From IMG/VR virus record IMGVR_UViG_2681813227_000011: a stretch of 22,219 bases of DNA; one strand, given 5' to 3'. Source of the DNA: a virus. Lineage: Duplodnaviria > Heunggongvirae > Uroviricota > Caudoviricetes. The notes beneath the pieces were generated by a model, which worked only from the letters and a program-made list of their open reading frames with translations, was not told the DNA's origin and made no database searches. The position numbers and the translations under genes are program-made. Below, one piece after another: positions 1 through 22,135 of this stretch. The stretch's first letter is position 1. Each line of letters begins with the position of its first letter.

Positions 1-131
1 GTGCAGCATCTTGCAGAGCATGGCATTAATACATCTAAGCGCTCGTGATTATAATATAATTACCTATATTAGCTCTGACCTGACAGTTACCGTTATTTAT
101 ACAGATATCTGTCAGATTACATCTAACCAAC

Positions 132-159
132 AAAAAACCGGAGCCGGACTCCGGTTTTT
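132..159 (-). terminator. Rho-independent terminator (bidirectional-looking hairpin)
   Basis: AAAAAA-CCGGAG-ccgga-CTCCGG-TTTTT: 6-bp GC-rich stem flanked by an A-run and a T-run, immediately downstream of the minus-strand ORF ending at 174. Confidence 0.6.
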
Positions 160-173
160 GTGAATCCGTCGGG

Positions 174-443
174 TTACTTCATCCCGCCAATATTTTCCCA
201 CGTCCCGTCAGCACGCAGGATTTGCAGCGGTCTTACCACACACTGTATCTGCTTTTTATCCGCATCCAGTATCACCACCTGCGTGATTACCCTGTCCTGC
301 TCCGGGATAATGCCATTCTCATCTGACTCCAGAATGTCTGCCGGTCCCAGTCGCAGCTGTGCTGTAAGTAACTCCCCGTGTTCACGGTCATCATGCTTTC
401 CGCAACCACACAGACGCTGCATAAGTTTTTTTAGTATGTTCAT
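174..443 (-). CDS. Small hypothetical protein (~89 aa from MNILKK), paralogous to the C-terminal domain of the upstream collagen-repeat protein
   Basis: ATG lies 1 nt after the stop of ORF 445..975 (TGAcATG). Its RLGPADILESDENGIIPEQD...LD...LQILRADGTW aligns with [20 protein letters not shown]...LD...[10 protein letters not shown] of the upstream protein. The longer track ORF 174..575 probably overextends the N-terminus. Confidence 0.35.
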   Translation of the reverse strand: MNILKKLMQRLCGCGKHDDREHGELLTAQLRLGPADILESDENGIIPEQDRVITQVVILDADKKQIQCVVRPLQILRADGTWENIGGMK

Positions 444-444
444 G

Positions 445-879
445 TCATTCTCCTGTTCTGCCTGTATCACTGCCCACTTCATCCAGCCCCTTAACATCCT
501 GCCACGGCCCGTCACCAAACCTGACCTGCAAATGCCGAAACAGCCCCTGAACCTGTGTGGCATCTTTGGGGTCAAGAAAGGTCAGTCCGGTGATGAGCGC
601 ACCATCTGTATCCGGGAACCAGCCATGGCTGTTTGTCTCAATAATGCTCGCCGGCCCCAGACGAAAACGGATTTGTGTCTCCCCCGGGTCGCCCTTCGGT
701 CCCTGAGGTCCGGTTGCCCCCACCGGGCCAGCCGCACCTGTTTCTCCTTTCGGTCCCTGTGGGCCTGCCGGGCCTGCCGGGCCTGCCGGGCCTGCCGCAC
801 CGGTATCTCCCTTTGGACCCTGTGGACCTGCATTTCCCGTATAGCGCGGCGATTTTTTTGATACCGATTTGCATTTCAT
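445..879 (-). CDS. Collagen-like (Gly-X-Y) repeat protein, phage tail-fibre-like; possibly 5'-truncated
   Basis: About 20 uninterrupted G-X-Y triplets ([53 protein letters not shown]) followed by a ~70-aa globular C-terminus. The track ORF opens at 975, but 880..975 overlaps the direct-repeat region; start is uncertain (ATG near 879). Confidence 0.5.
762..797. repeat. Perfect 9-bp tandem repeat (GGGCCTGCC x4), in frame within the collagen-like gene
   Basis: Direct reading of gggcctgccgggcctgccgggcctgccgggcctgcc; encodes (AGP)n on the minus strand. Confidence 0.8.
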
Positions 880-925
880 TTGATACCGCTGAAAAACGCC
901 GATACGCAACTTATTTGATACTAAA
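855..925. repeat. Direct repeats of TTTGATAC(CG) (3 copies) in the gap between mom and the collagen-like gene; candidate prophage right-end or transposase-binding repeats
   Basis: TTTGATACCG at ~857 and ~879, TTTGATAC at ~914, plus CGATAC at ~900. Function inferred from position only. Confidence 0.3.
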
Positions 926-967
926 TCGGCGCTTTTCTTTTGAGTTTTAGAATGAGTTTTTAAGCGC

Positions 968-1705
968 TCATTCACTCTCTTTCAAACCAGTTTTAACTGT
1001 TTGTGGTTTTGGGTAAGGCTGGACTTTGAATAGCTTTGTGTTGAGGCGTTTTCTGGCCCTCTTGTTCAGAAACCGGATGTAACGAAACTGTCGGAACTTA
1101 TGAACACTGGCTCTGTCAATATTAGCCCTCAGATGTTCACCTCGTTGTCCGCCTCGTTTAATGGCATTCCTGCAAATCTCGTGATACCACTCGCCATCAA
1201 GTTCATAGAATATTGATTCATGGCTGCCTACATAATCAAAATTGCTTGCCTGATACACGACACCAAGACAGCCACAACGCTCATCTGCAAACGACTGAAC
1301 CCACTGTACCTGCGGATAAAGCTGCCTGATTAGCTTGAGCGCGTAACTGATTGCCCTTGATTCGGAGTTTCTCGGCATACAGTCATGCAGCCATAGCCGG
1401 TTAAGCTCCATATATTCTCGGTTCTGCGTACCCGTTACGACGCGTGCACCACTGTTTGGGTTAAGGGCGTAACCCCATTGCATTACGCCAACAAGTTCCC
1501 GTCCTGAAAATATGCCCAGATGAAGGTAGGAGTTATTTACGAAACGGTGGCTGTAATGTTTATTGACGATGACCAGTCTGGCCAGCCAGCAACTTATTGT
1601 CTCAACCCGCAACTCACGGGAGCCATAACCAACGATATTGTCGTTATAGCGAATAAGTTCAGGCGTGCTGATGATACGGGATGTGACTTGCTTTCTGTTC
1701 CCCAC
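968..1705 (-). CDS. mom: Mom-like DNA modification protein (anti-restriction adenine modification)
   Basis: ~230-245 aa ORF immediately downstream of and overlapping a Com-like zinc-finger ORF, positioned after the invertase as in phage Mu. Identity rests on synteny; exact start is uncertain. Confidence 0.55.
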
Positions 1706-1859
1706 GACAGGATTTCCTTGTGTATGTGGGGTGCTCTGTGGCGCTCGGAGATGTGATTTGATTGAGGGTTTTACAGCGCGGACATTTTACTTCCAGATAA
1801 CTGAAACTGGCCCGTGCCAGTAGCTTATTGCAGTGTCGGCACCGTATGTTTCGATACAT
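1659..1859 (-). CDS. com: Com-like zinc-finger translational activator of mom (start at internal MYRNIRC)
   Basis: [30 protein letters not shown]: CxxC-16-CxxC zinc finger in a ~66-aa protein resembling Mu Com as I recall it; its 3' end overlaps the mom start. Confidence 0.6.
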
Positions 1860-1904
1860 GGCCGCATAACCTCCTGCTTTGTTGTTGATGCCTTTTTCAT
1901 GCAA

Positions 1905-2082
1905 TCGATCGACAAAAACGATCGATTCGATTTGTTTAATTGATACAACAAATAGATTTAAAAGTCATCAACAATGATTCAGGGCGGTGATTATTTACTT
2001 AAAGAAAACGAAGACTTAGGTGGTGAAAACGATCATAAAATGATCATTTTATTGACTTTTTATCCAGTGAAGGTAGGATCGC
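1905..2082 (-). promoter_or_regulatory. Candidate com-mom promoter/regulatory region with clustered GATC (Dam) sites and a perfect 18-bp palindrome
   Basis: GATC at ~1907, 1920, 2031, 2042 and 2077 (5 in ~175 bp). ATAAAATGATCATTTTAT at ~2035-2052 is a perfect palindrome centred on a GATC. The region is AT-rich and lies upstream of com. Confidence 0.4.
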
Positions 2083-2345
2083 GCGTATATGTAGTATGTT
2101 TCAAATCAACAGGATACTACATAAAAGGGAAACCCAGCATAGCTGGAACTATGCTGGGCCGATTTAGACAAGTTTGCATCAATGCTTTACTTCGGGACTA
2201 CATAAATGGCGACTCAGATAGCGCGAACTATTCTGGGTCAATCTGTAAAAACTTGCATCAATGCTTCACTCTGAGCTCGTGGTGTATCCTATGATATTCC
2301 CCGGTCTCCTGTAAAGCAGAGATGCATCTGTTCAGGCAGGAGAAA

Positions 2346-2552
2346 ATGGATAAACTGACCACCGACCAAAAGTTACAGGCTGCGCGAATTGCAGCTGATA
2401 TCACAATTGCAGCAATGACATCCACCAGTTGTGTCTTTACCTCTTTTCATACAGCCGGTGATTCATCAGCTATGCAATTATGGAACGCGTGCTTTTCTGA
2501 TGTAATTCGGGCAATCAGCGAGTCAACTGACCCTCACGAACCGCAAAAATAG
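2346..2552 (+). CDS. Hypothetical small protein (68 aa from MDKLTTDQ)
   Basis: AGGAG Shine-Dalgarno 4-5 nt upstream of the ATG at ~2346; a hydrophobic stretch (IAADITIAAMTST). Converges on and overlaps the next ORF. Confidence 0.3.
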   Translation: MDKLTTDQKLQAARIAADITIAAMTSTSCVFTSFHTAGDSSAMQLWNACFSDVIRAISESTDPHEPQK

Positions 2553-2715
2553 CGCATCTTGGGGTACACAGGATCTGCATCGCTATCCACATTGCAGTGG
2601 TGAAGTTTCTATCCTGTAATGTATTTTCATCAAGTCCTGAACGTAGCGCATTGATAATTTCTGCGCTTAATATTTCCAGACCTTTGGTATCGGGCTGCTT
2701 TTTGTTCTTCTCCAT
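2515..2715 (-). CDS. Hypothetical small protein (66 aa)
   Basis: GAGG Shine-Dalgarno ~8 nt upstream of the ATG (agaggaaataatcATG). No recognisable family. Confidence 0.4.
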   Translation of the reverse strand: MEKNKKQPDTKGLEILSAEIINALRSGLDENTLQDRNFTTAMWIAMQILCTPRCAIFAVREGQLTR

Positions 2716-2789
2716 GATTATTTCCTCTGACTGGTATATACATCGCTCATGAAAATCAAACCGACAGGAGAAGCTGTCGGTTTGTATTG

Positions 2790-3035
2790 TTACATCATGG
2801 CACTGTCAGTTCCGGGCTGAACCGGCTCTGGTTGCTCTACGGGCTGAGGCTCATTCTCCGTGCTGTTTTCAGCCGGAGAATGGCCAACCATTCGGGCCAG
2901 CACTTCATCAACATATGCGTCGATTTGTGCCTCAAAATCCTTGCGAACCTGCGCCTTCAGCACGCGGTTCACTTCTTCAGAATAAAGTGCCTGTTTGACA
3001 AGCTCTTCAGTAACCGTGCCTTTAATCTCTGGCAT
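2790..3035 (-). CDS. Hypothetical acidic small protein (81 aa from MPEIKGTV)
   Basis: Strong Shine-Dalgarno (aaaaGGAGaatattcATG) at the internal start; the longer track ORF 2790..3146 is probably overextended. Acidic Pro/Glu-rich C-terminus. Confidence 0.45.
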   Translation of the reverse strand: MPEIKGTVTEELVKQALYSEEVNRVLKAQVRKDFEAQIDAYVDEVLARMVGHSPAENSTENEPQPVEQPEPVQPGTDSAMM

Positions 3036-3252
3036 GAATATTCTCCTTTTGCAGGTATATTGCCCCGTTATCAGAGCGGGTCGGGTCGTTTGGGGATGAC
3101 GGTGCCTGTGCTGTTTTACTGAGTTTTTCAGCTGCCGCATCATCAATTTTACGGCGAATATAATTTCTGATGACCTTATAACCGCCGCTCACCAGATATA
3201 ACGCACTGACCACAGCGCAGAAATAAAGCAGCATTGTATGAACGAATGTCAT
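3022..3252 (-). CDS. Hypothetical small membrane protein (76 aa, one predicted N-terminal transmembrane helix)
   Basis: LLYFCAVVSALYLVSGGY hydrophobic helix followed by a basic stretch; its stop overlaps the start of the next ORF by ~14 nt, suggesting a two-gene operon. Confidence 0.45.
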   Translation of the reverse strand: MTFVHTMLLYFCAVVSALYLVSGGYKVIRNYIRRKIDDAAAEKLSKTAQAPSSPNDPTRSDNGAIYLQKENIHARD

Positions 3253-3366
3253 ATAACCTTACCTTTGATATTGACTACATAATTCGTTATCGGGTAAAAA
3301 CATCGAAGCGACTGATAACCACTCCTTCGGGAGTATTTTTATTTTCCTTTATGGGTTAGGTAGCTC

Positions 3367-3400
3367 CCGCCAGCCATATCATGACCGGCGGGATTTTTTT
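3367..3400 (+). terminator. Hairpin plus T-run (terminator-like in plus-strand polarity)
   Basis: CCCGCC-N15-GGCGGG followed by TTTTTTT, at the 3' end of the esterase gene. Polarity is opposite to the surrounding genes, so its role is unclear. Confidence 0.3.
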
Positions 3401-5438
3401 ATTCTGTTACCGCTTTTTTCACTTCCACCACAATGCTGTCAATCAGCACCGGGTAAGTTGCATTTTTGGTGATATCCGTTACGCGGAGTTTGTCCACCGG
3501 GAAAGTTCCTACTGGTGACTGCGTCAGGGTAAACGCGGCACCATCCTGACCATCAATAACCGGAATAACCTGAAGGCTGTTATTTCCTGCAAAACGGAAG
3601 GCCAGCGTATGCCATTCATTATCAAATGCACCAAAGGTTCCCAGTTTCTGGTTATTTGTTGCCACTTTTGCATTGTGGTACATCACATTCAGGTCTTTTG
3701 CGTCTGTCTGGATGTAGAACGATGCCAGCAGATTATTCCCTGCATCCCCTGTCAGGGTGACACCCTGCGGCAGAGAGGAAACCGGCCAGTAAAGCGCCAT
3801 GACATACTGGTTTGCCACCAGGTCGCCCGGTACTTTAAAACGACAACTGATTAAACCACCATTTTTCAGCAGTTCAGCACCAGTACCGGCATCATGATCC
3901 AGATACCAGGATGATTTACCTGTTTCCTTGGTCAGTTTCATTGCCTTACCACCTGTGCCTCCTGCATCACTGATAATTTCAGCTTTACCGCCAGCCGGCT
4001 CCCAGCCCTGGGCTTTCAGATTTCCTTCTGACTCACTGACACGGTAAGACAGCAGTGTTGTGGTTACTGCTTCAGTTTCTGAAGGTGACGGCACTGGTGC
4101 TTCAGTTTCAGAAGATGGAACATCGGCTTTTACTGTGGTTCGCCCCGCATGAGTCAGAACTGCCGTGGCCAGACGGTCGGAAATAATCCCACGACGTGCC
4201 CATGAACTGAAATGGCTGGCCCGGTCCGCAGATGTCCAGGTGGCGGCACTGTTACGCCACGTTGAGCCGTAATAACCAATGGATTCAATATCCGGGTCTT
4301 CTGCCGGATTGTTGGTGGGTACATTCGCGCCATTTTCATCTGTCATTAATGGGACGAAATGAATGTTTTTATCTGTTTTATTTTTGTAGCCGTCATAGAT
4401 TGCCTGGTATGCCTGTTCGTTTTTCTGTTTCCAGAAATACGTGGTATCACCACAAATCCACGGAACGCCAGCAGCACTGCCACCGGTACACTGTTCCGCC
4501 TGTTCAGCCAGGTCTGCGCGGAATTTTTCCACCATCGCCAGAAACAGCGCAGAATGCTCCGTCGGCTTCGCATCAATATCAAACTCGCCCTGCATCCACA
4601 CCACAGCAAGCAGGCGGTTTTTCGGGTTCTTCGCCAGTGCCGCTTTTGTCCGGCTGATTAAGTCCTTATACAGCGGCTTATCCACACCCCAGCGGGCTGA
4701 GTCCTCTGAAGCACCCGTGCTGTCACTGTACGTGCCGTCAGCACCCGCCGTGAATGCAGAACCACCACGGCAGCAGGGAACCAGCAGAATCCCCGCATCT
4801 GCCGGAATAAACGGCAGCAGTTTTTTGGCAATGTGAAGCCCCTGACCCACGGTGCCATATTGCCCTTTAGCCACATCCGCTTTCGGGTGATTTTTTCCAC
4901 TCATATCCTGCACATCATGCAGACAGTGGTCGGCCAGAATGATGTCGTTATACTGACAGGCTTTACCTCCCGGCGTGACTGTACTGCGACGGGCTAACTG
5001 CATAATACGCGGTTCGGGGCGGTCATATGTCTCCGGCAGTGGCAGACCTTCACCGTAAGCCATACCGTTTGACTGACCAGCAAGAACCACCACGTAATAC
5101 CAGGAAGGGGAGCTGGAAGCAGTTTCATTTCCTGACGGACGGGTATGTGTTTCAGCATTATCCCAGTCTGACGGTTCAGCAGTACCGGCAACATCAGCAC
5201 TTAACGGAATGACCGCACCAATACCCGCTCCGGTAATTTCCACACTCGGATCACCGGATACTGGCCTTACCCACAGGCAATCCCGGGTATTAAAACTGAT
5301 GAGACAGTCAGCAAATGTCATTCCTCCTTTTGTTTCGGCCGGAGGAAAGGGAGCCTCAAGAAATGCCGCTGTACCACCGGAAACTTTAACAGTAAAGTTT
5401 CCGGGCATTGATGATAGTTGAACCCATTTGGACGTCAT
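3399..5438 (-). CDS. Prophage-type sialate O-acetylesterase (NanS-p-like): SASA/SGNH esterase domain plus C-terminal lectin-like domain
   Basis: VVVLAGQSNGMAYGEG matches the GQSN(M) catalytic-serine block of the sialate O-acetylesterase family. A Thr/Glu/Pro/Ser-rich linker and a ~200-aa C-terminal domain follow. 679 aa. Confidence 0.7.
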   Translation of the reverse strand: MTSKWVQLSSMPGNFTVKVSGGTAAFLEAPFPPAETKGGMTFADCLISFNTRDCLWVRPVSGDPSVEITGAGIGAVIPLSADVAGTAEPSDWDNAETHTRPSGNETASSSPSWYYVVVLAGQSNGMAYGEGLPLPETYDRPEPRIMQLARRSTVTPGGKACQYNDIILADHCLHDVQDMSGKNHPKADVAKGQYGTVGQGLHIAKKLLPFIPADAGILLVPCCRGGSAFTAGADGTYSDSTGASEDSARWGVDKPLYKDLISRTKAALAKNPKNRLLAVVWMQGEFDIDAKPTEHSALFLAMVEKFRADLAEQAEQCTGGSAAGVPWICGDTTYFWKQKNEQAYQAIYDGYKNKTDKNIHFVPLMTDENGANVPTNNPAEDPDIESIGYYGSTWRNSAATWTSADRASHFSSWARRGIISDRLATAVLTHAGRTTVKADVPSSETEAPVPSPSETEAVTTTLLSYRVSESEGNLKAQGWEPAGGKAEIISDAGGTGGKAMKLTKETGKSSWYLDHDAGTGAELLKNGGLISCRFKVPGDLVANQYVMALYWPVSSLPQGVTLTGDAGNNLLASFYIQTDAKDLNVMYHNAKVATNNQKLGTFGAFDNEWHTLAFRFAGNNSLQVIPVIDGQDGAAFTLTQSPVGTFPVDKLRVTDITKNATYPVLIDSIVVEVKKAVTE

Positions 5439-5537
5439 AATAATCAGCCTGTTCCTGAATAAACTGAATTATCATATCCACAGACCGATAAACGCCATTT
5501 TGCGTTAATTCAGTAAAGGCCCAACAAAGAGAGCGTC

Positions 5538-6098
5538 TTATTTTTCCGAAACGCTCGCAGGATAATAACGATAAAGGGTTGAAAGACCGATATCAAAAAT
5601 AAGTGCCACCTGTCTTCGACTGACACCCCCGGCCAGTAAACGCCCGACCTGCTCGTATTGTTCCTGCGTGAGACGGCGGGGTCTGCCGCCGGTTCGTCCC
5701 CTTTCACGGGCAGCTGCAAGACCAGCCCGTGTCCGTTCGACAATTAATTCACGCTCCATTTCTGCCAGCGCACCCATTATGTGAAAAAAGAAGCGCCCCA
5801 TGGGGGTTGACGTATCAATGTTGTCAGTAAGACTACGAAAATTTATCCCCTGTTGCTGTAATTCATCTGTCAGCGCAACAAGGTGGCGCATACTGCGCCC
5901 CAGCCTGTCCAGTTTCCAGACCATCAGCGTGTCACCGGGTTTTAGTTTCTTCAGTGCCCGCTTCAGTCCCGGCCGCTGTGTCGTTTTACCACTCATTTTG
6001 TCTTCAAAAATCTGCTCACATCCTGCACATTCCAGCGCATTTCTTTGTAAACCGGTGTTCTGGTCATTTGTTGATACGCGTATATAGCCAATCAGCAT
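5538..6098 (-). CDS. gin: Serine DNA invertase, Gin/Pin/Cin/Hin family
   Basis: N-terminus MLIGYIRVSTNDQNTGLQ (catalytic Ser in the resolvase/invertase motif), C-terminal helix-turn-helix, 186 aa, adjacent to an invertible tail-fibre segment. Confidence 0.9.
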   Translation of the reverse strand: MLIGYIRVSTNDQNTGLQRNALECAGCEQIFEDKMSGKTTQRPGLKRALKKLKPGDTLMVWKLDRLGRSMRHLVALTDELQQQGINFRSLTDNIDTSTPMGRFFFHIMGALAEMERELIVERTRAGLAAARERGRTGGRPRRLTQEQYEQVGRLLAGGVSRRQVALIFDIGLSTLYRYYPASVSEK

Positions 6099-6152
6099 GT
6101 ATTTACCTTCCTTAAAAAGAGGTGGAAAAGCCTTTTAAAGCAGATATACGGC

Positions 6153-6178
6153 ATCCCTGAAACCTCGGTTTACGGGAT
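6153..6178. other. gix-like recombination site (left, invertase-proximal)
   Basis: ATCCCTGAAACCTCGGTTTACGGGAT: inverted counterpart of the site at 7579..7604 with central AAACC-TC-GGTTT. It is ~55 bp upstream of the invertase start and directly follows an in-frame stop. Confidence 0.65.
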
Positions 6179-6532
6179 ACGGTAAACAGGGCCGCGAATG
6201 CCCTGCCATCAAACGGTACGGCTGTTGCAGCAAGCAGGCTGGCAAATGCCCGCAGAATCAATGGTGTCGCCTTTGACGGCACGCAGGATATAAACATTAC
6301 GTCAGGAATGCCGGAATCAACGGCCAATCAGCGTTATGTTACAGGGGTAAGACTGGGAGCGCAGGCATTAAGCGGCGGACTGGAATATAATTACTCCCTG
6401 TCATCAGGAAATGTGATTACCGGTTTTAAGACTGACGGAGACTGGGAAATGCGTGGTGGTGATGACCGTGTTTATTACAGACAGATACAATATTGTATTA
6501 ATGGGCATTGGGTATCCGCTGCAAGTATTTAA
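6161..6532 (+). CDS. Silent alternative tail-fibre C-terminal cassette (Sv'-like; no start of its own in this orientation)
   Basis: Plus-strand frame translates to NLGLRDTVNRAANALPS...RYVTGVRLGAQ...YYRQIQYCINGHWVSAASI, parallel to the C-terminal 127 aa of the expressed fibre (NLGLRETVNKAADALPS...RYVQNVQLGAQ...YYRPVQIYINNAWRTVSSV). A TGA sits immediately upstream. Confidence 0.7.
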   Translation, partial: NLGLRDTVNRAANALPSNGTAVAASRLANARRINGVAFDGTQDINITSGMPESTANQRYVTGVRLGAQALSGGLEYNYSLSSGNVITGFKTDGDWEMRGGDDRVYYRQIQYCINGHWVSAASI

Positions 6533-6653
6533 TTAACGGGGGCATAGCACACAGCAGCCAGCATCTGAAATATGCGTTATTTCAGACAAGCATTGCCTGT
6601 ATATGGCGATAGTATTATTCCTGTTTTTATCATTGATTTACATGGTGATGTTT

Positions 6654-7175
6654 ATGCAACTGATTAATGTCAAACGATATTACCCGAAAGACAAACCCTA
6701 TGGTGAGGATGTTCAGTATTTCCAGAGTGAGGACGGAAGGGATTTTTATGAATCTATCCCGCTTTTTACAAAGAAATACAAACTCTGTATTTCGCCTGTA
6801 ACGGGTATTATCTGCTCTGTTGCTGAAGATGTCTCTGCTTTATATCCGGCAGGTTTTACTGTTGTTGAAGTGGACGAACTGCCGGAAGGTGTGAATATTG
6901 ACGGTAACTGGCAGTTTTCTGATGGCCTGATATCAAAGGTGCCGGTAAACTGGAAGACGGTTGCTGAAAAGCGTCGCTCATCGCTGCTCCAGGAAGCCAA
7001 CGAAACCGTGGATGACTGGAAAACAGAATTAAAACTGGACATGATTAGCGATGAAAATAAATTACAGCTGACGCGCTGGATGGCGTATATCCGACAGCTT
7101 AAAGAAATGCACTTTAATGATATTGCCAGTGAGGGGCATTACCAGGCGATTCCCTGGCCGGAAAAACCGGAATAA
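6654..7175 (+). CDS. Tail-fibre assembly protein (Mu U / lambda Tfa family), co-oriented with the silent cassette
   Basis: ~174 aa from MQLINVKRYYP. The C-terminus LTRWMAYIRQLKEMHF...AIPWPEKPE follows the Tfa pattern as I recall lambda Tfa. The track start at 6603 adds an implausible hydrophobic leader. Confidence 0.7.
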   Translation: MQLINVKRYYPKDKPYGEDVQYFQSEDGRDFYESIPLFTKKYKLCISPVTGIICSVAEDVSALYPAGFTVVEVDELPEGVNIDGNWQFSDGLISKVPVNWKTVAEKRRSSLLQEANETVDDWKTELKLDMISDENKLQLTRWMAYIRQLKEMHFNDIASEGHYQAIPWPEKPE

Positions 7176-7180
7176 TTCAG

Positions 7181-7203
7181 AGGGTGCATTCAGCACCCTT
7201 TTC
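7181..7203 (+). terminator. Hairpin plus T-run between the convergent Tfa and tail-fibre genes
   Basis: AGGGTGC-attca-GCACCCT-TTTT in the 34-bp gap between the Tfa stop (7175) and the tail-fibre stop (7210). Confidence 0.5.
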
Positions 7204-20361: not shown

Positions 20362-21485
20362 TATTGCATTTCCTCTTTCATTTTCAGGAACTCGGCTTCG
20401 GTTTTACCCAGCAGTTTGGCGGCCGCGATATCTTCAGCCGACAGCACAGCGGTGGCAGTCTTTTTATCCGGCACGGTCACGGTGTCGGTCTGAAGGCCGG
20501 TCAGGGCCGCAACCGGCTGGCGGGCGTCAAGCTGTGCAGAAAGTGCCGCCACGCCAATCTGCCCGCCCAGTTGTTCCAGATAGCCGCGTTCACTTTTGAA
20601 GATGCGTCCTTCGGACTCGGCCTTGTCCAGCAACTGCTCCAGCGTGGTGCTGCCGTGCTGCGCCGACAGCGCAACGTATTCGGTACGCAGGGCGTTATAC
20701 GTTTCAACGGGCACGTATTTCGTCAGGTCAATACTGCCGCCAGCCGGTGTGCCTTTTGCAGTTTCCAGCTCTGCCGACAGACTGGCGACCTGTGTTTTCA
20801 GGTTGTCGTGTGCATCCGCACGGGTTTTGATCCCGGTGAGGGCAGACAGCGCTGCCGTGCCCAGCTCCGGCGTAAATTCGTCACCGTCAGCCACGGTCAG
20901 ACCGAGCGCCGTCAGCAACTGGCGTAATTGCTCATTCATGGAGGTATCCTTTAAAGGAGGGTTTAAGGCGTTATAAAGGTCATCCGCCGACAGTGCGGCG
21001 ACAGGATTCATGCCGGTCAGACCGGGGTCACCGGTAATAGCCAGCATCCGAAGTTCGACAGGTTCGCCGGTGCTCTCGTCATAGCCAATCACCGGTGAAA
21101 ACCAGGGGAATTCGTTATTACGCAGATGTTCAAGGGCCGGAGGGTTCCACTTCGGGCGCACCTCGAAACCTCGCTCTTCACTGAAGCGAAAATTCTCCGG
21201 TGAGGCCATCACAAAACCGGCAGCCGGTGCCGGATGTCCCTCAATCAGGGTCTGGTGGTTGTAGTCAATTTTCACCGGCTGATTGAGCGCCACAACACGG
21301 GAGACCATGCGCTCAACGGCTGCATGGTTGATCAGCCAGCCCTCGGCCGGTTTTTCCGGGAGACCGTCACGGGCCTTTACCCGACCGGCTGGCATGATCT
21401 GACACCAGTCACCGTCCCCGTCTGCGGACAGGCTGATGGCATTCAGAATGGCATAAGCAAGTTTGGGCGTGTTTTTCGTCTTCAT
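20361..21485 (-). CDS. I: Head maturation protease/scaffold protein (Mu I-like)
   Basis: 374 aa; the C-terminal third is an Ala/Leu/Glu-rich predicted coiled coil (scaffold-like); it immediately precedes the capsid gene. Confidence 0.8.
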   Translation of the reverse strand: MKTKNTPKLAYAILNAISLSADGDGDWCQIMPAGRVKARDGLPEKPAEGWLINHAAVERMVSRVVALNQPVKIDYNHQTLIEGHPAPAAGFVMASPENFRFSEERGFEVRPKWNPPALEHLRNNEFPWFSPVIGYDESTGEPVELRMLAITGDPGLTGMNPVAALSADDLYNALNPPLKDTSMNEQLRQLLTALGLTVADGDEFTPELGTAALSALTGIKTRADAHDNLKTQVASLSAELETAKGTPAGGSIDLTKYVPVETYNALRTEYVALSAQHGSTTLEQLLDKAESEGRIFKSERGYLEQLGGQIGVAALSAQLDARQPVAALTGLQTDTVTVPDKKTATAVLSAEDIAAAKLLGKTEAEFLKMKEEMQ

Positions 21486-21661
21486 TCCGGCAGCATAGGC
21501 CGGGAATTTTCAGGGCGGGTTTTGCGGGATTTCAGGAAGTGCTTTCAGGGGAAAAATACAAAGGCGCTTCACGCAGATTTTAAAGCCCGTTAAATTCAGG
21601 TTAGAAAATCACGACACGCGCCTGAAGGGGGTAAGGTAATGCATTTGCATACCTTAAACAA
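21486..21661 (-). promoter_or_regulatory. G-I intergenic region: candidate late promoter with dyad-symmetry elements
   Basis: Only substantial non-coding gap (176 bp) in the morphogenesis operon. Contains the near-perfect palindrome AAGGTAATGCATTTGCATACCTT and CCTTAA-N4-TTAAGG just after the G stop. Confidence 0.35.
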
Positions 21662-22135
21662 TTAAGGCGTTTCTGTGGCCTTTTTAAAGCGTTTTCTGAT
21701 TTCGTCCATGATCTCCTGCTCTGCCACCTGATCAAAGCCCATATACGGACGTGCACCAATGGCCGCCGGTCCAGGCGGCATACCTGGCAGGCCCCCCCAC
21801 TGATGAATGGCCGCATAAGGCTCATTTGATCCAATCAGCGCCCAGGTATCGCCATAATCCGTGGTCAGGCGTCGGGCCAGATCGCCGTTCAGCGTCAGGA
21901 TTTTGCCGGGCATGTATCCCTTACGGGTACGCCACTTGCGGTAAGGATCTGACCAGTCATGCCAGCGTTCGCCGTCCGGCTCTTTTTCCTGTTCAAACGC
22001 CATTTCTGACGATGACAGAAGGCTGGACGCCACACTGCGGGTCAGGTCTTTTCCACCACCCACAAACTGAAGCCGGGCAAAGACCCGCTGGAGACGCGTA
22101 ACGTCAACAACGACAGCGGCATCAATGGATGACAT
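21662..22135 (-). CDS. G: Virion morphogenesis protein (Mu G-like)
   Basis: 157 aa, GGAGG Shine-Dalgarno upstream, positioned upstream of the I-like gene as in Mu. Confidence 0.7.
   Translation of the reverse strand: MSSIDAAVVVDVTRLQRVFARLQFVGGGKDLTRSVASSLLSSSEMAFEQEKEPDGERWHDWSDPYRKWRTRKGYMPGKILTLNGDLARRLTTDYGDTWALIGSNEPYAAIHQWGGLPGMPPGPAAIGARPYMGFDQVAEQEIMDEIRKRFKKATETP

Follow-up and report, generated by a model that had tools for sequence, protein, structure and literature searches.

Two separate GATC-bearing elements upstream of com-mom in an Sp18-type Mu-like prophage of Escherichia coli: a putative Dam/OxyR operator and a predicted outward promoter

Control of mom in bacteriophage Mu is a textbook example of regulation that depends on methylation; Mom shields phage DNA broadly from restriction enzymes and is toxic if mistimed. 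Here we describe the region upstream of the com-mom operon in a 22,219-nucleotide stretch of DNA from a tailed phage (Caudoviricetes; IMG/VR record IMGVR_UViG_2681813227_000011), referred to below as the window. Judged by its sequence, the window is the late region and natural right end of an Sp18-type Mu-like prophage of Escherichia coli. A sequence-only reading had drawn attention to five GATC sites in ~175 bp, two of them inside GATCATAAAATGATC, and to a perfect 18-bp palindrome, and had taken the whole as one region controlled in the manner of the Mu mom promoter (Pmom), by Dam, OxyR and a late activator of the C type. All five sites are present (1907, 1920, 2031, 2042 and 2077), as are GATCATAAAATGATC at 2031-2045 and the palindrome ATAAAATGATCATTTTAT at 2035-2052, which equals its own reverse complement. 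However, the cluster is the sum of two separate elements in the 486 bp between the com ATG (1859) and the ATG of a small plus-strand gene (2346). We hold it to be probable, if well short of certain, that this interval is a divergent control region in which a Dam/OxyR operator in front of com-mom is accompanied by a separate sigma-70 promoter reading outward.

The GATC pair next to com

The operon is a genuine com-mom operon by its Pfam matches (Table 1), and the cluster does lie in a regulatory region upstream of com, with the correction that com and mom are on the minus strand and upstream is hence read from right to left. The control region starts 44 nt before the com ATG. Its first element holds two GATC sites 13 bp apart, GATC III at 1907 and GATC II at 1920, which are targets of Dam. 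They are carried by the core ATCGACAAAAACGAT (1908-1922), the sole match in the window to ATCG-N7-CGAT, the form of one OxyR dimer half-site. Read on the com strand, the sequence is ...tatcaattaaacaaatcgaatcGATCgtttttgtcGATCgattgcatgaaaaaggcatcaacaacaaagcaggaggttatgcggccATG, its Mu counterpart reads ...GATCgaatcaattaaatcGATCggtaatacaGATCgattatgccccaataacc..., and alignment to Mu Pmom retains AATCGATCG and GATCGATT at the identical 13-bp spacing; GATC I, the position of which reads TATCAAT here, and the Mu C box are missing. All three sites are present in Mu and at L007, L009, L019, L021 and L031. The agn43 (flu) gene of E. coli K-12 has the same ATCGATCG-N7-CGATCGAT core, which in direct reading is tatcGATCgtttatatcGATCgata, and this explains a match to the Rfam family IS102 (IsrC, the agn43 leader) that reaches 18.8 bits against a threshold of 46 and reflects similarity at the DNA level only. 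Rfam gave no match at gathering scores in the whole window, and among matches at E up to 10 within 1500-3500 the one to IS102 was the only informative one. Across 13 distinct sequences of the Sp18 type no invariant runs are longer than those at 2023-2054 and 1907-1931, the second of which contains the pair. On these alignments the pair is homologous to GATC II and GATC III of Mu Pmom and agn43. The proposed likeness to the Mu Dam/OxyR cluster thus holds for these two sites and fails for the five as one unit, since Mu has three sites spaced 18 and 13 bp, of which only II and III are found here.

About 31 bp upstream, centre to centre, lies a weak and possible second half-site that has no GATC (ATTTGTTGTATCAAT, 7/10 against ATAGnTnnnAnCTAT). 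Together the two half-sites score 14/20, as they do in Mu, and agn43 scores 16/20 at 32 bp; shuffled sequences reach the score found here (P 0.2), and the OxyR consensus score, being like that of Mu but not above shuffles, was not used as evidence. We interpret element 1 (~1903-1953) as a putative shortened form of the Dam/OxyR operator of Mu Pmom, agn43 and P22 gtr. The inverted repeat around the pair was also considered as a terminator for the plus strand and rejected, because there is nothing upstream to terminate and it is the GATC pair, not the stem, that is conserved across loci.

We gathered com-mom loci from one genome per species, from IMG/VR and from E. coli genomes, which yielded 49 distinct com-upstream sequences. 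A GATC pair with 13-bp spacing is found within 150 nt of the com ATG in 38 of the 49, or, counted by distinct Com N-termini, in 13 of 20. There are two geometries, a long, Mu-like one with GATC III at -76 to -93 (n=20) and a short one with GATC III at -51 to -57 (n=17). The short type includes the window, an Edwardsiella locus, L057 to L059 and a com-methyltransferase locus of a P2-like prophage. At this last locus (L031 2442-2740, E. coli 2014C-3075) a com homologue precedes a DNA methyltransferase gene instead of mom, and the operator has three GATC sites at -82, -64 and -51 with TATCAT 11 nt downstream. As a full operator accompanies com there, the com and operator module moves between phage types and payloads. 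At L029-type loci, homology to the window stops near 1954-1960.

The -10 hexamer of the com-mom promoter is probably CATCAA at 1885-1890, a position that we infer by analogy. The same hexamer reads TATCAT or TATCAA in relatives; in FORC069 and L040 the best minus-strand promoter match is TTGTCG-19-TATCAT, with its -10 at -31 from the ATG, and other short-type loci have TATACT, TATAGT, TAGATT or TATCAT 11-13 nt past GATC III. With the -10 at 1885-1890 the two GATC sites would be placed at about -45 and -32, no more than 1 bp from where their counterparts stand at the P22 gtr promoter. In gtr one OxyR half-site contains two GATCs spaced 13 bp, methylation abolishes binding, and GATC3 and GATC4 start at -46 and -33 (PMC2909390). 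The P22 sequence has this layout (GATCgcttgtatcGATC, then TACACT 21 nt later), so that the gtr -10 follows GATC4 by 21 nt, and the candidate here follows the G of GATC III by 20 nt. The gtr pair overlaps the -35, as the pair here would do given the predicted start, and the half-site without GATC that gtr has ~31-32 bp upstream may have its like in the weak candidate here. The two systems differ in that a further GATC pair, half-site A, lies 64 bp upstream in gtr, where it gives an alternative ON state, and there is none here. As the distal GATC sites of the window have the wrong spacing and distance, phase variation is not predicted from the architecture alone. As in agn43, repression may act through a single OxyR site that cannot be occupied once Dam has methylated it; agn43 differs in having three GATCs at or downstream of the start, as against two that are probably upstream here.

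Control of com-mom by a C-type late activator, as in Mu, finds no support in the sequence. Neither the Mu C box ATAACCCC, which is common to the Mu late promoters (positions from the Mu annotation), nor the Sp18-type late box CCGCAAAWCC is found on the com strand upstream of com, and the com ATG lies just 51 nt from GATC III (78 nt in Mu), which leaves no room for a C site and a core promoter. We derived the Sp18-type box from Plys and PI, which share tCCGCAAAwCC followed by TTAyGCT 27-29 nt later. Sp18-type late promoters are located at 21485-21662 (minus strand) in the window and at L112 14550-14622 and 22606-22784, upstream of the lysis genes and the head protease gene; their box is unlike the C box of Mu, and the single Mor/C-family activator of this phage type, the gene for which lies immediately before the lysis genes, presumably acts there. 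The locus resembles Mu in having com-mom, behind a weak promoter, at the right end of a Mu-like genome, and in the context and spacing of GATC II and III. It departs from Mu in the absence of GATC I, of either late box and of the T6 tract, and in the operator, which would overlap the core promoter and not lie upstream of an activator site. On the com strand an intrinsic terminator precedes the region (Table 1), and all 13 Sp18-type variants, L057 and L058 retain its hairpin, with stems that differ in sequence. This terminator would insulate com-mom from upstream transcription, and as it is conserved, com-mom needs a promoter of its own between ~2122 and 1860.

That promoter could lie on the other side of the GATC pair, which would then be situated in the transcribed leader as in agn43, with OxyR blocking downstream of the start. 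We think this unlikely, though it deserves to be weighed. Candidates are ATGACT-17-TATCAA (-10 at 1940-1945) and a -10 of AATGAT or TATGAT inside the palindrome; the ATGAC(T/A)-17-TATCAA arrangement is kept in the L029 type past its strongly homologous part, and further minus-strand matches are TTCACT-17-AATGAT (score 6.6) and TTGATG-17-TTGTAT (score 4.7). Against these stand the weakness of the hexamers, which are without the conserved final T of a -10, the good -10 of other short-geometry loci, which follows GATC III by 11-13 nt and does not precede it, and the match to the gtr geometry, which favors a -10 downstream of the pair.

Under the arrangement that we prefer, with the operator over the -35 region, GATC II and III would form one OxyR half-site, with the degenerate one upstream. 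Reduced OxyR bound to unmethylated sites would cover the -35 region and keep com-mom off, and Dam methylation of both sites would exclude OxyR and permit transcription from the weak promoter, after which Com would allow mom to be translated. In this the locus would differ from Mu: no site for a late activator of the C type is seen, nor is there room for one.

The distal sites and the predicted outward promoter

The second element (2031-2080) appears to be a sigma-70 promoter that reads away from com. Its hexamers, TTGACT and TAGGAT, have a position weight matrix (PWM) score of 11.3; no promoter-like site of the region scores better, and on both strands of the window together this one ranks in the top five. 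Two diverged relatives, L057 and L058, with Mom ~80% identical, keep the promoter in place as TTGACT-17-TAAGAT and TTGACG-16-TATAAT; the spacers are unrelated, and the same two hairpins follow. The stem of the first hairpin is invariant and its loop has diverged across six lineages. The second, at 2133-2158, has changed in a compensatory manner and also serves as the terminator of the minus strand. The leader hairpins of the plus strand (2088-2160) match no Rfam family. Element 2 would start a transcript with a conserved structured leader that heads toward the divergent gene at 2346.

All three distal GATC sites belong to this promoter or adjoin it. The last (2077-2080) overlaps the end of the -10, another lies 6 nt before the -35, and these two are kept in L057 and not in L058. 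The pair at 2031 and 2042 stands with the palindrome in an AT-rich block within 2023-2054, an invariant run that no other exceeds in length (P 0.011). Only the E. coli lineage has the palindrome, which is not kept in L057. It has no further copy at up to three mismatches in the window or in a complete related prophage, so it is not a repeated operator or a late-activator site. Consensus scans for Fur, CRP, IHF, Lrp, H-NS and LysR-type regulators (LTTR) were unremarkable (P 0.13 or higher), and a scan for ArgR gave 14/16 at about 2051-2068 (nominal P 0.04).

Promoters with related features are known. IS10 pIN is the type of a Dam-sensitive promoter with GATC in its core elements, and by analogy the GATC that overlaps the 3' end of the -10 here (TAGGATC), kept as TAAGATC in L057, might act likewise; the L058 version (TATAATC) differs in having no GATC. 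In Mu, too, a promoter (momP2) inside the mom control region reads away from mom, and it overlaps momP1 and competes with it for RNA polymerase (PMC4287176, PMC3378877). The predicted promoter here differs in lying ~170-200 bp from the com ATG with no overlap with the com promoter, and it appears to serve a conserved transcription unit of its own.

Might the distal block instead be chiefly a site at which a nucleoid protein silences mom, either Fis or SeqA on hemimethylated GATC pairs? SeqA prefers two GATCs on one face of the helix, and those at 2031 and 2042 are 11 bp apart and so on one face. The 15-bp core of the block, GATCATTTTATGATC (2031-2045), matches the Fis consensus GNNYAWWWWWTRNNC perfectly, the block is invariant over 32 bp, and Fis is a known silencer of Mu Pmom, which it represses via five sites from -123 to +3 (PMC3378877). 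We judge this distinctly unlikely, since the block lies at about -160 from the putative com start and removal of the distal Fis sites of Mu (-123 and -98) did not relieve repression in vitro (PMC3378877). In addition, the Fis consensus is loose (three matches in the window against 0.78 expected), and we retain the match (P 0.027) as a hypothesis only; the palindrome is not found in L057 or L058, in which the adjacent promoter hexamers are. A modulating role at the outward promoter, by Dam and possibly by Fis or SeqA, may still be envisaged.

The single extended Pmom region of the sequence-only reading, with OxyR on the whole unmethylated cluster and a late activator turning the promoter on, is improbable. 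A genuine com-mom operon does adjoin the cluster, two of the sites are homologous to those of Mu, and phase-variable systems of the gtr kind use two GATC pairs ~64 bp apart. However, the palindrome and the distal trio of sites are situated 110-170 bp further upstream (for the sites, 108-167 bp from the proximal pair), the sites are spaced 11 and 35 bp, not 13 bp, and consensus scoring finds no good OxyR half-site among them. They are absent from Mu and from the com loci of the L029 type, L006 and L031, and they coincide with the hexamers of a conserved promoter on the opposite strand, at a locus that has neither late box.

Several points weigh against our view of the region as an operator plus an outward promoter. 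For the com-mom side, CATCAA is a very poor -10, 1885-1902 is the most variable stretch of the region, and transcription could start elsewhere than near 1878. A sigma-70 matrix finds no strong promoter on the com strand; the matrix also misses Mu Pmom, a promoter known from experiment, and so is blind to promoters that need an activator, which makes this result uninformative. An unrecognized activator site near com-mom is possible, and the Sp18-type late box was defined from only two promoters. The locus has no GATC I, a part of both the Mu and the agn43 site, and with a full-site consensus score no better than shuffles the case for OxyR and Dam rests on homology. For the outward side, the plus-strand transcript would run ~260 nt before any gene, in the window and in most relatives, and since the GATC sites are not found in L058 nor the palindrome in L057, a regulatory role for either is uncertain. 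Literature searches on the Sp18-type mom promoter, on maps of unmethylated GATC and on momP2 returned no data on this locus.

Neighboring genes and prophage setting

An open reading frame at 1974-2294 on the plus strand spans the distal sites, and the sequence-only reading had thought it probably non-coding. That it is a real gene (phrog_26524) of which the distal GATCs are merely coding sequence is very improbable, in spite of a PHROG match of 6.5e-35, 32 database homologues and a RefSeq pseudogene annotated there. Changes among the 13 Sp18-type sequences fall on codon positions 1, 2 and 3 in the numbers 12, 11 and 13 (26 nonsynonymous, 10 synonymous), which is no sign of purifying selection; two of the 13 have a 1-bp deletion and one a stop codon. 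The homologues are all from close E. coli relatives and end in different frames, giving varied C-termini, and L057 keeps the DNA elements of the region but has no similarity to the protein. The open reading frame is non-coding.

On the other hand, an unannotated gene for 68 amino acids begins at 2346 and is the likely target of the outward promoter. In five variants the frame is open; of 28 changes, 17 are synonymous and 11 nonsynonymous, and 18 fall at codon position 3, which shows purifying selection; the annotated minus-strand gene at 2515-2715 has 15 and 5 in the same test. Both are real genes, and the 3' end of the first overlaps the second by 38 bp. For the small divergent proteins, Pfam, NCBIfam and PHROGs returned no specific match. 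A different gene, for a zinc-ribbon protein of 53-56 amino acids, occupies the slot at 2346 in most phages of the Sp18 type and likewise in L057 and L058, with the junction near 2328; as the sequence to the left of the junction is shared and the slot genes differ, the promoter of the divergent gene should lie left of 2328. The zinc-ribbon protein (L032, L038 and L040 in E. coli; L057 795-980 and L058 742-903, both minus strand) has the pattern MDKE..CPxC...GKTY.PK...CPxCSP, belongs to no described family, and is replaced in the window from about 2328 onward.

Between the outward promoter and this gene there are further features. On the minus strand at 2286-2315, upstream of the terminator (2160-2131), is a promoter-like TTTACA-18-TAGGAT (PWM score 9.2) that is conserved in Sp18-type relatives and could yield an RNA of ~150 nt (~76 nt in one-repeat variants) antisense to the plus-strand leader. 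A 79-bp direct duplication (2139-2191 and 2218-2270, 77% identical over 53 nt) includes a degenerate second terminator hairpin, and ~225 of 235 matching E. coli records have a single copy of the unit. Immediately ahead of the ribosome-binding site of the 68-amino-acid gene, 2311-2326 is complementary to the segments 2175-2190 and 2254-2269.

E. coli OkiPb01711 is 100% identical to the window over 1850-2340, and the same stretch is found in 233 of 5426 complete E. coli genomes; Sp18-type Mu-like prophages occur in ~4% of complete E. coli genomes and are common in enterohemorrhagic E. coli (EHEC). In the OkiPb01711 RefSeq annotation the minus strand follows the Mu gene order through virion morphogenesis, head, tail, baseplate, tail fibre and Gin-type recombinase genes, and continues with DUF6645, DUF1378, DUF826, a small hypothetical gene, com and mom. 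The same arrangement terminates an intact Mu-like prophage in FORC_069, inserted in a fimbrial usher gene, and on this basis we judge the right end to be natural. The 3.6-kb lambdoid-type DUF6645/DUF1378/DUF826 module inserted between the Gin-type recombinase gene and com is a further difference from Mu; a second copy is located ~22 kb off in a host lambdoid prophage. At the other end, from 22202 onward (L003 22202-24268), IS3-family and IS30 elements truncate the prophage just past the virion morphogenesis gene, and the copy in this strain is without the early region and the Mor/C-family activator gene.

The module lies in a GATC-poor part of the window (1-8890) that holds 9 sites in 8.9 kb, compared with 68 in the remaining 13.3 kb; GATC-free regions in prophages have been noted in a methylome study (PMC6602927). 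No other 178-bp interval of the window is as dense in GATC as the cluster, for which a local mononucleotide model (33% G+C) predicts 0.5 sites. Its significance depends on the background, because placing 77 sites uniformly over 22 kb gives at least five in some 178-bp interval in 17% of trials (P 0.17), and doing so for the first 8.9 kb, with 9 sites of which 5 are in the cluster, gives such clustering in 0.01% (P 1e-4). That the cluster arose by chance in AT-rich intergenic DNA and has no function, as the first figure might allow, is hardly credible given the second, the pair kept across genera and the invariant runs centered on the sites; the conservation seen in these comparisons is a stronger argument for the cluster than its density.

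Table 1. Features of the com-mom control region and its surroundings (window coordinates)
Feature	Position	Strand	Basis and remarks
mom, 245 aa	968..1705	-	Pfam Mom PF25680, E 8e-77; RefSeq Mom family protein
com, 66 aa, zinc ribbon, first gene of the operon	1659..1859	-	Pfam Zn_ribbon_Com, E 2e-12; N-terminus aligns with Mu Com
com Shine-Dalgarno sequence AGGAGG	1870..1875	-	sequence reading; invariant in Sp18-type relatives but for one sequence
Candidate -10 of com-mom promoter, CATCAA	1885..1890	-	inferred; predicted start near 1878
Inverted repeat AATCGATCG-N7-CGATCGATT with GATC III (1907-1910) and GATC II (1920-1923)	1903..1927		homology to Mu and agn43
Possible second OxyR half-site without GATC, ATTTGTTGTATCAAT	1939..1953	-	7/10 against ATAGnTnnnAnCTAT; 31 bp centre to centre; weak
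Open reading frame, not a gene	1974..2294	+	substitution pattern in 13 sequences
AT-rich block with GATC 2031 and 2042 (11 bp apart) and 18-bp palindrome (2035-2052)	2031..2052		just upstream of the plus-strand -35
Sigma-70-like promoter, -35 TTGACT (2052-2057), 16-bp spacer, -10 TAGGAT (2074-2079)	2052..2079	+	consensus scan; predicted start near 2085-2087
Inverted repeat TATGTAGTAT-N16-ATACTACATA at start of plus-strand transcript	2088..2123	+	RNA hairpin or operator
Intrinsic terminator, com strand (hairpin 2133-2158, then TTTCCCTTTT)	2122..2160	-	kept in relatives
Unannotated 68-aa gene divergent from com	2346..2552	+	own AGGAG ribosome-binding site; likely target of plus-strand promoter

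Implications for Mom expression

Operators of the Mu, agn43 and gtr types are already known; what appears to be new here is a variant with a short geometry and a separate outward promoter. The putative Dam/OxyR operator travels with com as a conserved module in Mu-like and P2-like prophages of several genera and in two geometries. The short geometry, which cannot accommodate the Mu activator, is similar to that of the gtr promoter, a phase-variable one, and is found in prophages of pathogenic E. coli. For annotation, a spurious open reading frame can be removed, and an unannotated divergent gene with a conserved promoter and leader is pointed out.

As a speculation to which we attach little probability, com-mom of Sp18-type prophages may have been freed of the late activator and placed under an OxyR/Dam operator of the gtr or agn43 style over the core promoter. 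Epigenetic switching could then turn Mom on in a part of the lysogen population, or oxidative stress or perturbation of Dam could do so, and the divergent zinc-ribbon gene, with its Dam-marked promoter, would be part of the same switch. If so, host and prophage DNA in such cells would bear the Mom adenine modification outside the lytic cycle. If it is true that OxyR and Dam alone gate com-mom, the expression of Mom in lysogens becomes a testable question.

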